This document shows positions 49,251 to 50,991 of a stretch of 64,000 nt of DNA, one piece after another; the first letter of the stretch is position 1, and every line of letters begins with the position of its first letter. Source of the DNA: Candidatus Aminicenantes bacterium (GTDB lineage Bacteria > Acidobacteriota > Aminicenantia > Aminicenantales > JAFGAV01). Position numbers and translations under genes: made by a program. The stretch lies in the NCBI GenBank assembly GCA_963705895.1, contig OY970122.1:3178383-3242382 (forward strand), written 5' to 3'. Below the pieces are notes generated by a model, which did not search any database, was not told the DNA's origin, and saw nothing but the letters and a program-made list of their open reading frames with translations.

Positions 49251-49700
49251 ATGAACGGAAAGAATCTCGAACTGCGTGTCGATAAGTTCATCTTCCGTTT
49301 TCCCGAAGGCCTCTATTACAGCGATGCGGGAATCTGGGTGAAGATCGAGGAACGACGAGTTCGGATCGGCCTTTCCGACTTCACCCAGCAGAGGAATGGG
49401 GACGTGGCTTTTGCCGAAGTTAAAGAGGCCGGGACAACGGTCCTGGCAGGAGACGAGGTGGCCGTGGTCGAGACGATCAAGGTCAACTTGAGCATACCGT
49501 CGCCCGTCAGTGGGACGGTCGTCGAAGTCAACGGCGACCTTTTGGCCTCTCCCGAGCTTGTTAACCAGGATCCCTACGGGAAAGGTTGGCTGGCCGTCAT
49601 CGAGGTTGAGGATGTCGCCGCGGCGAAAGCCTCCCTGAAGACCGCGACGCAGTACTTAGCCCTGGCCAAGGTCCAGGCGGAAGCGGAGGTAGCGCGGTGA
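49251..49700 (+). CDS. Glycine-cleavage H-like lipoyl carrier protein
   Basis: IGLSDFTQ, VETIKV (lipoyl Lys), SPVSGTVVEVN, PELVNQDPYGKGWL. No gcvT or gcvP nearby. Confidence 0.88.
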   Translation: MNGKNLELRVDKFIFRFPEGLYYSDAGIWVKIEERRVRIGLSDFTQQRNGDVAFAEVKEAGTTVLAGDEVAVVETIKVNLSIPSPVSGTVVEVNGDLLASPELVNQDPYGKGWLAVIEVEDVAAAKASLKTATQYLALAKVQAEAEVAR

Positions 49701-50098
49701 GACGCAAAGTGGTCGTGGTCCCCTGCAGCGGGATAGGGAAAGCCCTTGGTGCTGCGGCCCGGGAGGCGGCTTATGTCCTGACCGAGGACCTCCGGCCCGA
49801 ATGCACGAAGATTACCGCCCTGGGGCTTCTGGTTTTGGGCGACCCTGAAACACGCCGAGAAGTGGCAGGCAGCGCGGCCGTCGCGATTGACGGTTGTAAA
49901 CTCGAGTGCGCCGCCAAGGGGCTTGAGGCCTCCGGGGCCGGCCGAGTCCAAAAGATTGCCGTCTTCGATGTCATCCGGCGTCACCGCGGGCTCAAGCCGG
50001 AAGGTGTGATCGACCTCAACGAAGACGGACTGCGGCTGGCCCGGGCTGCGGCCGAGGAAGCACTGAAATTTGTCGACGAGGAGGCCGCCGATGCCTGA
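49697..50098 (+). CDS. DGC-domain putative zinc-binding protein 1
   Basis: VPCSG...AIDGCKLECA; GTGA-coupled to the H-like gene. Confidence 0.8.
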   Translation: MRRKVVVVPCSGIGKALGAAAREAAYVLTEDLRPECTKITALGLLVLGDPETRREVAGSAAVAIDGCKLECAAKGLEASGAGRVQKIAVFDVIRRHRGLKPEGVIDLNEDGLRLARAAAEEALKFVDEEAADA

Positions 50099-50549
50099 CC
50101 TGCCGAAAAAGAAAGTTGGTCTGATCGCCTGCTCCGGGGAAGAAATGGCCGAGGGCACTGTCACACGGCGGGCCGTCCGCAAAGTGATCGAAACACTAAG
50201 GCCCGATGACACCGTGACTCTCTGTCTGCCGCTGTTTCTAGCGGGCGGAGAGGGTGAACGGGCTTTTGCCCGGTATTATCCGACGATCGCGGTTGACGGA
50301 TGCGAAAAACGGTGCGCCGCCCTCGCCACCGAGAAGTACAGCGCGAGACCGGCCGCATCGATCATCGTGACTGATATCGCGAAGGAAAAGGGCTGCGGGG
50401 CGATCGGTACGGCGCGGAAACTGAATGAGGCCGGGCTGCGGCTGACCGATTCAGTCGCCGAGAAGATCGTGGCGGAAACGGACCAGCTCTTGAAGAGGAA
50501 ACCCAAGGGCACGACCCGCAAGGCGGCCGGGAGGGGCGCTGATGGCTAA
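50091..50549 (+). CDS. DGC-domain putative zinc-binding protein 2
   Basis: IACSG...TLCLP...AVDGCEKRCA; GAGGAGG RBS; overlaps the upstream stop. Confidence 0.8.
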   Translation: MPDLPKKKVGLIACSGEEMAEGTVTRRAVRKVIETLRPDDTVTLCLPLFLAGGEGERAFARYYPTIAVDGCEKRCAALATEKYSARPAASIIVTDIAKEKGCGAIGTARKLNEAGLRLTDSVAEKIVAETDQLLKRKPKGTTRKAAGRGADG

Positions 50550-50991
50550 AACCGAACTCTACGAAACCTCCGTGAGTTGGACGGGTGGGCACCGGGGAAG
50601 CCTGAAGCTCGGCAACGGGCCCGAGATGGACTTCTCCGCGCCGCCGGCTTCACACGGTGAACCGGGCGTCCTGACGCCGGAGGATGCTTTCGTCGGCGCC
50701 GTCAACACCTGCATCATGTTGATGTTCATCTGGGCGGCCCAACGGTTCCGCCTGGACCTGGGGTCTTATGATTGCCGGGCGGAAGGCACGAAACTCATCG
50801 AGCTCGACCGGACGGAAATATTCACCCGGGTTGTTTTAAAACCCCGAATCACCGTCCGGGCCGGCCGTGAAGCGCCCGCGGCCATTAACCAACGGGCGCG
50901 TCGCGCGCTGGACTCCGCGCGGAAATACAGCCTCGTCGCAAATTCCATCAAGAGCGAACTCGTTATCGAACCGGAGATCATCGTCCAATGA
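50542..50991 (+). CDS. OsmC/Ohr-family protein lacking the C-terminal conserved Cys
   Basis: FSAPP...[25 protein letters not shown] has Ser where the family usually has Cys. Confidence 0.8.

Follow-up and report, generated by a model that had tools for sequence, protein, structure and literature searches.

The question raised by this locus is what four overlapping genes, encoding a putative lipoyl carrier, two cysteine-rich DGC proteins and a protein of the OsmC family, are doing inside an arsenic-resistance (ars) operon. The genes lie in a 64,000-nucleotide stretch of a Candidatus Aminicenantes genome (contig OY970122.1), referred to here as the window. A preliminary description, made from the letters of the window, had placed them on the plus strand between arsR and acr3–arsC and had reported a lipoyl lysine motif (ETIKV) in the carrier and two DGC paralogs. 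The open reading frames (ORFs), gene overlaps and Pfam matches agree with this layout, the motif is present with the lysine at position 77, and both DGC genes match PF08859. The four genes, termed the cassette, are as follows.

49251..49700, + strand: GcvH-like putative lipoyl carrier with K77 (PF01597, 115.1 bits)
49697..50098, + strand: DGC1, with three invariant cysteines (C10, C67, C71) and a GTG start (PF08859, 48.0 bits)
50091..50549, + strand: DGC2, short form, with four invariant cysteines (C14, C45, C71, C75) and an ATG start (PF08859, 61.7 bits)
50542..50991, + strand: OsmC-like protein with C57, C78 and Ser130 (PF02566, 39.0 bits)

All scores exceed the Pfam cut-offs (22.2 for PF01597, 27 for PF08859 and 27.5 for PF02566). 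The GcvH-like and DGC1 genes overlap by 4 nt (GTGA), DGC1 and DGC2 by 8 nt (ATGCCTGA), and DGC2 and the OsmC-like gene by 8 nt (ATGGCTAA), and a GGAG-type purine-rich stretch is located 6–9 nt upstream of every start. For DGC2, a TTG codon at 50070 is a longer alternative start.

Conservation of the cassette was analyzed at two levels. Within its own phylum, a scan of 401 genomes with PF08859, the window genome (G000) included, found DGC genes in 26 genomes, and 13 of these (G000 among them) contained at least two DGC genes ∼420 nt apart. In the stretches of 13.6–17.9 kb that were fetched around the paired genes of the other 12 genomes, the order GcvH-like–DGC1–DGC2 was present in 12 of 12 loci, with an OsmC-like gene next in nine, and all 12 stretches also contained a match to the Acr3 family or ArsC. 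A wider scan of species genomes with the DGC2 alignment matched at least 593 stretches, and tblastn confirmed at least 555 of them. The best 80 loci, which were retained, originate from Aminicenantes, other Acidobacteriota, many Chloroflexota and one Myxococcales genome. A cultured carrier among the Chloroflexota loci is Ornatilinea apprima P3M-1 (locus L071). With at least 555 species-level genomes from several phyla carrying it, the cassette is not a curiosity of one genome.

Neighboring genes within 9 kb were counted in 92 loci (E ≤ 1e-8, at least 50% query coverage); these loci were chosen by their likeness to DGC/DGC2, and the related genomes among them are not independent. The subset with at least 5 kb on both sides (full-flank loci, 58 in total) gave the following counts, with ArsE-Trx denoting the ArsE-type thioredoxin (Trx).

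GcvH-like beside DGC2: 58 of 58
DGC1 beside DGC2: 58 of 58
OsmC-like: 56 of 58
ArsE-Trx: 52 of 58
ArsR: 48 of 58
Acr3: 38 of 58
ArsC: 34 of 58
Any of Acr3, ArsC, ArsP, ArsD, ArsA: 44 of 58
Radical SAM/SPASM: 26 of 58 (34 of 92 overall)
CcdA: 20 of 58
Periplasmic Trx: 16 of 58
AhpD/CMD: 8 of 58 (11 of 92 overall)
Dihydrolipoyl dehydrogenase (Lpd): 5 of 58 (11 of 92 overall)

Loci without a GcvH-like or OsmC-like gene are cut by contig ends, save for a variant with three DGC domains that is described below, and the four-gene order was found again in every related locus examined that was long enough. This fixed gene order exceeds chance. The gene directly after the OsmC-like gene encodes ArsE-Trx in 57 of 82 loci, and the gene directly before the GcvH-like gene encodes ArsC in 21 of 88 loci, ArsR in 14 and Lpd in nine. 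A CxC motif, mostly CVC, is found in 31 of 33 upstream ArsR proteins. The four genes are thus a conserved unit tied to ars genes in several phyla, found in Acidobacteriota, Chloroflexota and one Myxococcota genome. The four-gene module proposed earlier does recur, but it is incomplete as a unit because the ArsE-type thioredoxin is its regular fifth member.

The distribution of the cassette is sporadic, with 13 of 401 genomes in its own phylum and seven of 401 in a Chloroflexota sample, the latter judged by an OsmC-like match at E ≤ 1e-30 (at most nine candidates scored per genome). A tblastn search of a plasmid collection with DGC2 gave no match. The sequencing runs listed with a match were DNA runs, with no RNA run among them. 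When 1.84 billion representatives were searched with a profile of the OsmC-like alignment, 1119 proteins were obtained at E ≤ 0.001, 340 at ≤ 1e-10 and 44 at ≤ 1e-30, with many fragments in the top rows. Two apparent OsmC-like fusions (P0140 and P0145) were read as frameshifted gene calls and dropped.

The cassette proteins

Judged by profiles, motifs and phylogeny, the GcvH-like protein is a distinct paralog and not the housekeeping GcvH, which is encoded elsewhere in the genome in a gcvT–gcvH–gcvP operon (at ∼675 kb). It misses the TIGR00527 equivalog cut-off (114.3 versus 115.85 bits) and just passes the NF002270 subfamily model (118.8 versus 117 bits). Within the ETIK77 motif, all 86 orthologs share K77 and E74, and 83–84 of the 86 sequences have an N-terminal DKFxF extension that housekeeping GcvH proteins lack. 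The lipoyl group would be the sole thiol of the carrier, since 73 of the 86 sequences contain no cysteine. In a maximum-likelihood tree of 29 rows (six housekeeping copies, 15 module copies, two copies from the three-DGC variant and six further paralogs, with the weak matches L144 and L147 left out), the six housekeeping GcvH copies form one clade (98/94) and the 15 module copies form another (88/92), as expected if the preliminary description was right to set the protein apart from GcvH. The window protein shares 31% identity with the housekeeping GcvH of the same genome and 45–80% with module copies of other phyla. Phyla are intermixed within the module clade, which suggests that the cassette spread laterally.

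The GcvH-like protein is putatively lipoylated. The window contains no gcvT, gcvP, lpd or lipoate ligase gene, as had been reported earlier, and its sole Lpd-like match (28087–29373) is a flavoprotein of the ferredoxin-NAD reductase type. Outside the window, the genome encodes LipA (339.7 bits, cut-off 310.25), one LplA-like protein and an Lpd homologue (41% identity) at 1.148 Mb.

The invariant cysteines of the DGC proteins were defined in alignments of 51 (DGC1) and 53 (DGC2) sequences. Four conserved cysteines are the rule for the DGC family in the available text of a preprint (bioRxiv 10.1101/2022.10.17.512643); DGC2 has four and DGC1 only three. The AlphaFold2 (AF2) model of DGC2 is confident (predicted local distance difference test, pLDDT, 86.8) and predicts a flavodoxin-like α/β domain. 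A Foldseek search of the PDB with this model returned nothing at E ≤ 0.001, and the best match in a wide VIA-align search was an uncharacterized Wolinella protein (3pu6; Z 9.1, root-mean-square deviation 2.9, 115 residues aligned), the remaining matches being generic α/β domains with Z ≤ 8 from which no function follows. A search of PDB sequences with the DGC2 profile gave a single spurious row (E 0.97), and the ESM Atlas contained only DGC clusters, labelled 'zinc-binding protein family'.

Prediction of a DGC1–DGC2 complex gave an ipSAE of 0.81, and the best of three controls reached 0.00. This mark was attained by 58 of 80 solved complexes and by two of 110 mismatched pairs, a calibration that is only rough for DGC1–DGC2 because our own alignments were used. 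The prediction runs agreed in at least 98% of contacts, with a partner pLDDT of at least 86. The predicted interface comprises residues 9–14, 65, 69 and 71–72 of DGC1 and residues 13–18, 43, 45–48, 73 and 75 of DGC2, which correspond to the cysteine-bearing loops. The modeling therefore supports a DGC1–DGC2 heterodimer with the cysteine loops at its interface.

In the three-DGC variant (three loci, all without an OsmC-like gene), one open frame encodes a DGC domain (57–60 bits) followed by a GCV_H domain (102–108 bits) in three of three genomes. The fused genes are located as follows.

L042, 8801–9655, − strand: DGC–GcvH-like fusion, first DGC domain fused in frame
L043, 7985–8863, + strand: DGC–GcvH-like fusion, first DGC domain fused in frame
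L044, 8000–8848, + strand: DGC–GcvH-like fusion, first DGC domain fused in frame

A second elaboration is a C-terminal extension of about 100 residues in 62 of 75 DGC2 ORFs, which consists of a disordered linker with an invariant CxC motif and a small domain, modeled as a hairpin plus three helices and belonging to no recognized family. A representative long form is encoded at 7980–8738 of L071, and a Foldseek search with its model returned nothing at E ≤ 0.001. The DGC2 of the window and the other Aminicenantes copies lack the CxC extension.

The OsmC-like protein belongs to the OsmC family by profile, and its closest PDB profile matches are 2onf (4.3e-9) and 2d7v (1.6e-8). It has the peroxidatic-type cysteine in the central helix (C57) and the glutamate (E47), and both are invariant, together with C78, in the window protein and its 80 orthologs (81 of 81 each). 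The preliminary description had noted a serine in place of the second conserved cysteine, and the profile alignment indeed puts the cysteines of 2onf and 2d7v opposite S130. Its term 'single-Cys' does not apply, because there is a second invariant cysteine, C78, which 2onf and 2d7v lack. Opposite the Ohr GGR motif the window protein has an arginine; the catalytic arginine of Ohr lies in the N-terminal loop. Read from these alignments, the protein has an OsmC fold in which the second cysteine is relocated (130 → 78) and the arginine is not conserved.

The ars locus and recurrent neighbors

In the window, an unbroken run of plus-strand genes with short gaps or overlaps extends from arsR to arsC (44897–52713). 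Its order is arsR, an ArsE-like thioredoxin, a small cupin, two half-size ArsP_1-like permeases, a thioredoxin, ccdA, a ferredoxin-like gene, the cassette, acr3 and arsC. With a CVC-type ArsR, an As(III) efflux pump and an arsenate reductase on the same strand, the run has the makeup of an ars operon. Promoter-like sites are present on both strands at 44851–44894, between arsR and a divergent permease gene. The genes around the cassette are as follows.

43810..44841, − strand: ArsP_1-family permease, divergent from arsR (PF03773, 245 bits)
44897..45274, + strand: ArsR/SmtB repressor with a CVC motif (LCVCEL; PF01022, 68 bits; NF033788, 89.7 bits)
45276..45521, + strand: MTH895/ArsE-family thioredoxin-like protein with CPRC (TIGR00412, 100.2 bits, cut-off 62)
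46033–46515 and 46512–47024, + strand: two half-size ArsP_1-like permease genes (PF03773, 26.4 bits, below cut-off, and 37.8 bits)
47011..47460, + strand: thioredoxin with an N-terminal hydrophobic signal, probably exported (PF00085, 44.9 bits)
47473..48171, + strand: CcdA/DsbD-type membrane thiol-disulfide transporter (PF02683, 96 bits)
48220..48864, + strand: ferredoxin-like protein with a 2x[4Fe-4S] N-terminal domain (PF12838 and PF00037)
49133..49247, + strand: decayed remnant of an ArsC C-terminus (tblastn, 21 of 26 residues identical to the ArsC of L040)
51026..52093, + strand: Acr3 arsenite efflux permease (TIGR00832, 473.3 bits, cut-off 282.8)
52222..52713, + strand: ArsC, arsenate reductase of the low-molecular-weight phosphatase type (PF01451, 56 bits; TIGR02691, 110.3 bits, below the cut-off of 174.3)

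The ferredoxin-like protein has a weak likeness to HgcB, below cut-off, and its C-terminal ∼130 residues match no family. A small gene in the gap at 48865–49250 was considered and rejected in favor of the ArsC remnant, whose tblastn E-value of 1e-10 was obtained in a search against a 501-nt stretch only. In L040, arsC precedes the GcvH-like gene; because the remnant matches an ArsC in this position in relatives, it suggests arsR–arsC–gcvH-like as the ancestral order, with the upstream block as a later insertion. The G+C content is 0.545–0.548 at 44001–48000 and 0.58–0.65 in the rest of the window. This lower G+C, taken together with the mixed-phylum clade of the GcvH-like protein, hints at a lateral origin of the upstream part of the ars island. 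Downstream, a complete phosphate uptake operon (pstS-pstC-pstA-pstB-pstB-phoU, with two pstB copies, 52979–57774) begins 266 nt past arsC. Arsenate enters cells via phosphate transporters, so this proximity may not be accidental.

Across the collected loci, almost every neighbor of the cassette is a thiol/disulfide protein. An Lpd gene is located 22–123 nt upstream of the GcvH-like gene in 10 of 80 loci (TIGR01350, 497.6 bits, cut-off 408.8), and recurrent neighbors include AhpD/CMD-type CxxC proteins, a PF04060 Fe-S protein, VKOR–thioredoxin fusions and CcdA with an exported thioredoxin. AhpD is itself another lipoyl-dependent redox protein. From the dedicated lipoyl-relay system of the preliminary description, the conserved ars-linked unit stands, and the lipoyl redox cycle, with Lpd directly upstream in some loci, is plausible. 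The recurrent radical SAM/SPASM gene (for example, L064, 5418–6740, and L086, 9172–10425) lies 6 nt past the OsmC-like gene in four loci. The models nearest to it, a maturase of a tungsten-cofactor oxidoreductase and a 'putative metalloenzyme maturase', are reached only below cut-off (TIGR04317, 281 bits, cut-off 380).

DGC genes that occur singly have similar company. Of the 14 single-copy DGC loci in the phylum sample, 10 encode ArsE-Trx, a thioredoxin, CcdA or an ArsP-like protein within 1.5 kb, and the whole DGC family thus seems tied to a thiol-export/arsenical gene set. In L010–L018 and L020, a high-scoring single DGC gene is part of permease(ArsP_1)–ArsE-Trx–DGC–thioredoxin–CcdA clusters. 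An arsR5–arsP–arsE–DGC operon of P. mercurii ND132 is up-regulated by arsenic, a statement made for the operon as a whole in the available portion of bioRxiv 10.1101/2022.10.17.512643.

What the cassette may do

We give an even chance to the reading that the four genes, together with that for the ArsE-type thioredoxin, encode a thiol/disulfide relay that is centered on lipoate and controlled by ArsR. In favor of it are the translational coupling and constant order of the genes, their ars linkage, the invariant K77, the predicted DGC1–DGC2 complex, the nearby Lpd and AhpD/CMD genes, the known H-protein/OsmC pairs and the arsenic response of the single-DGC operon in P. mercurii ND132. In such a relay, the GcvH-like protein would carry the lipoyl arm as its only thiol group, and the DGC1/DGC2 heterodimer, whose seven invariant cysteines are predicted to meet at the interface, would act directly on this arm, either as an Fe-S or cysteine-based lipoyl reductase or as an electron gate. 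The in-frame DGC–GCV_H fusion, by the Rosetta-stone argument, argues for DGC proteins working on the carrier. Where present, Lpd would provide an optional entry of NADH electrons. The reduced lipoyl arm could then re-reduce the C57/C78 pair of the OsmC-like protein, and possibly also ArsE or ArsC, and the OsmC-like protein would be the terminal thiol enzyme that turns over an oxidant of arsenic stress, such as a hydroperoxide, As(V), or a pentavalent or thiol-bound arsenical. The anatomy and conservation of the cassette, its ars linkage, the DGC–GCV_H fusion and the adjacency of Lpd are observed; lipoylation, the direction in which electrons flow, the cofactor of the DGC proteins and the terminal substrate are the parts of this scheme that we infer.

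Several points weigh against the relay. No solved fold relative found with Foldseek, VIA-align or the PDB profile search points to a function for DGC. The window has no Lpd gene, and only 11 of the 92 loci have one within 9 kb. The OsmC-like protein may not be a peroxidase: the canonical resolving cysteine is absent, with S130 in 80 of 80 orthologs (one gap) where 2onf and 2d7v have cysteine, and the position aligned to the Ohr arginine is occupied, across the 81 sequences, by Arg in 13, Trp in 59, Asp in five, Lys in two and Leu in two. Neither is this protein indispensable, because the three-DGC variant lacks it. In 14 of 58 full-flank loci, only ArsR and/or ArsE, and none of Acr3, ArsC, ArsP, ArsD and ArsA, are encoded within 9 kb. 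Finally, a lipoyl relay would be poisoned by the very stress that it serves, because its reduced lipoyl dithiol is a prime As(III) target, unless this binding is intended.

The last objection turns into an argument if the cassette is a metalloid carrier, the main rival reading, which we regard as rather doubtful. Dihydrolipoamide binds trivalent arsenicals with high affinity, and the paradox of arsenite poisoning dihydrolipoyl groups would be removed if the reduced lipoyl arm captured As(III) or MAs(III) and passed it to a Cys3/Cys4 center of DGC1/DGC2 and then to Acr3 or ArsP, in a manner comparable to ArsD → ArsA, with Lpd serving only to keep the arm reduced. Three cysteines are the usual coordination number of As(III), and DGC1 has exactly three invariant ones; the seven cysteines cluster at the predicted interface, the cassette adjoins efflux genes, and in most lineages the invariant CxC on the disordered linker of DGC2 could also take part in the transfer. 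However, such a carrier leaves the OsmC-like protein without a role despite its fully conserved Cys-Glu site, and ArsD and ArsA, both unrelated to DGC, are encoded in only 11 and seven of the 92 loci. The window DGC2, moreover, lacks the CxC tail.

It is unlikely that the cassette is not specific for arsenic and instead represents a general thiol-stress or peroxide defense of the H-protein/OsmC type that rides in islands regulated by the ArsR family or, in an alternative form that shares this grade, serves Sb, Cd, Hg, persulfide or thioarsenate. The 14 loci with only ArsR and/or ArsE nearby would fit such a role, as would the response of CVC-type ArsR/SmtB sensors to other soft metals. In the same direction, known H/OsmC pairs work on peroxides, as far as the accessible parts of the sources cited below describe them, and the available text of bioRxiv 10.1101/2022.10.17.512643 mentions possible thioarsenicals made by P. 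mercurii. Against this, arsC is translationally adjacent to the GcvH-like gene in 21 of 88 loci, Acr3 is found within 9 kb in 38 of 58, and neither the arginine nor the resolving cysteine of the peroxidases is retained.

A service in which DGC1/DGC2 and the radical SAM/SPASM protein build or repair the lipoyl group on the GcvH-like protein as scaffold or donor, with the purpose of restoring arsenic-damaged lipoyl enzymes, is very improbable: GcvH is a lipoyl relay hub in some bacteria and 34 of the 92 loci have the radical SAM/SPASM gene within 9 kb, but the window genome has the cassette and no ortholog of this gene (best match 33% over 156 residues), the maturase models are reached only below cut-off, the cassette has no amidotransferase or ligase, and fusions of an enzyme to its substrate carrier are rare.

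Elements of the redox relay and of metalloid transport can be combined in a broader proposal that lipoate is a metalloid-handling cofactor, which is possible but less likely than not. A dedicated H-type carrier would either deliver As(III) or MAs(III) for efflux or drive the reduction of As(V) or pentavalent organoarsenicals. As parts of the same tentative proposal, Lpd, or an FTR-like, seven-cysteine and possibly Fe-S-containing DGC1/DGC2 heterodimer, would keep the carrier reduced, and the reductive branch would be independent of thioredoxin and proceed through C57/C78 of the OsmC-like protein. If true, this would provide the first function for the DGC family and an extra cofactor in arsenic biology; a lipoyl arm that binds or reduces arsenicals would link the classic target of arsenite, dihydrolipoamide, to a defense based on the same chemistry.

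Comparison with known systems

Although few detoxification systems have been studied as well as the ars operons, their parts list has no lipoate-dependent component, and we know of no ars component that uses lipoate. As a fixed set of genes within ars operons of several phyla, the cassette suggests a thiol-based branch of arsenic defense that has not been described. It had not been recognized as a described ars module in the preliminary description, and no account of it was found in openly licensed papers and bioRxiv preprints, although one in a subscription journal is possible. What is new is the ars-embedded cassette, with its predicted DGC heterodimer, DGC–GcvH fusion and relocated OsmC cysteine; the GcvH-like/OsmC pairing itself is not, because it is already known as a peroxide-defense pair in the sources available to us in part. 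The predicted heterodimer, the carrier fusion and the arsenic-induced relatives offer a testable way into the uncharacterized DGC family, and the OsmC-like protein is a natural case of an OsmC fold whose second cysteine appears to have moved.

The closest parallels to the proposed relay are two pairings of an H-type carrier, acting outside glycine cleavage, with an OsmC-family protein. In the hydrogenosomes of Trichomonas vaginalis, OsmC together with the H and L proteins reduces peroxides (Nyvltova et al. 2016, as cited in bioRxiv 10.64898/2026.10.01.755906 and PMC11316075), and in the GcvH_1–OsmC gene pair of Hyphomicrobium denitrificans, the GcvH-like protein is the probable electron donor (bioRxiv 10.64898/2026.10.01.755906). 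As far as the accessible portions of these sources describe them, the cassette is similar to the L/H/OsmC relay in that Lpd is encoded next door in 10 of 80 loci. It differs in having two DGC proteins between the carrier and the OsmC-like protein, in the apparent move of the resolving cysteine from 130 to 78 and the lack of a conserved arginine, in its place under ArsR beside arsC, acr3 and arsE, and in its hosts, which are mostly uncultured lineages from sediment-type samples.

The chain Lpd–DlaT–AhpD–AhpC is another lipoyl-dependent system, and AhpD/CMD-type genes are located near the cassette in 11 of 92 loci. In this chain and in lipoyl-dependent Ohr/OsmC (Cussiol 2010, as cited in the available text of bioRxiv 10.64898/2026.10.01.755906), a lipoyl dithiol reduces a cysteine-based redox protein, as is proposed for the cassette. 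However, the donor described there is the E2 component of a 2-oxoacid dehydrogenase, and the accessible account includes no dedicated carrier, DGC protein or ars context.

Among GcvH paralogs with a task beyond glycine cleavage, LbpA (sHdr sulfur oxidation) and GcvH-L (SirTM/macrodomain operon) are comparable to the cassette carrier. In contrast to these, the scanned neighbors of the cassette included no hdr, dsrE, tusA, sirtuin or macrodomain genes, and the carrier does not reach the NCBIfam models for GcvH paralogs (TIGR03077, 62.7 versus 144; NF045810, 54.5 versus 150).

Within ars biology, the small cysteine-rich proteins of the cassette resemble accessory proteins such as ArsD, Trx-coupled ArsC and ArsE/MTH895 in being probably co-regulated with Acr3 or ArsP, but the predicted DGC fold matches neither ArsD nor thioredoxin. 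The nearest relatives in gene content are the single-DGC arsR–arsP–arsE–DGC operons of the P. mercurii ND132 type, in which, according to the available portion of the preprint, a member of the same Pfam family is located near ArsE-Trx and an ArsP-type permease. The cassette is set apart from these operons by its DGC scores (PF08859, 48–62 bits, versus 83–122 in ten of fourteen single DGC proteins and 59–68 in the other four) and by its architecture, in which two diverged DGC paralogs, one of which has lost a cysteine, are paired with a putative lipoyl carrier.

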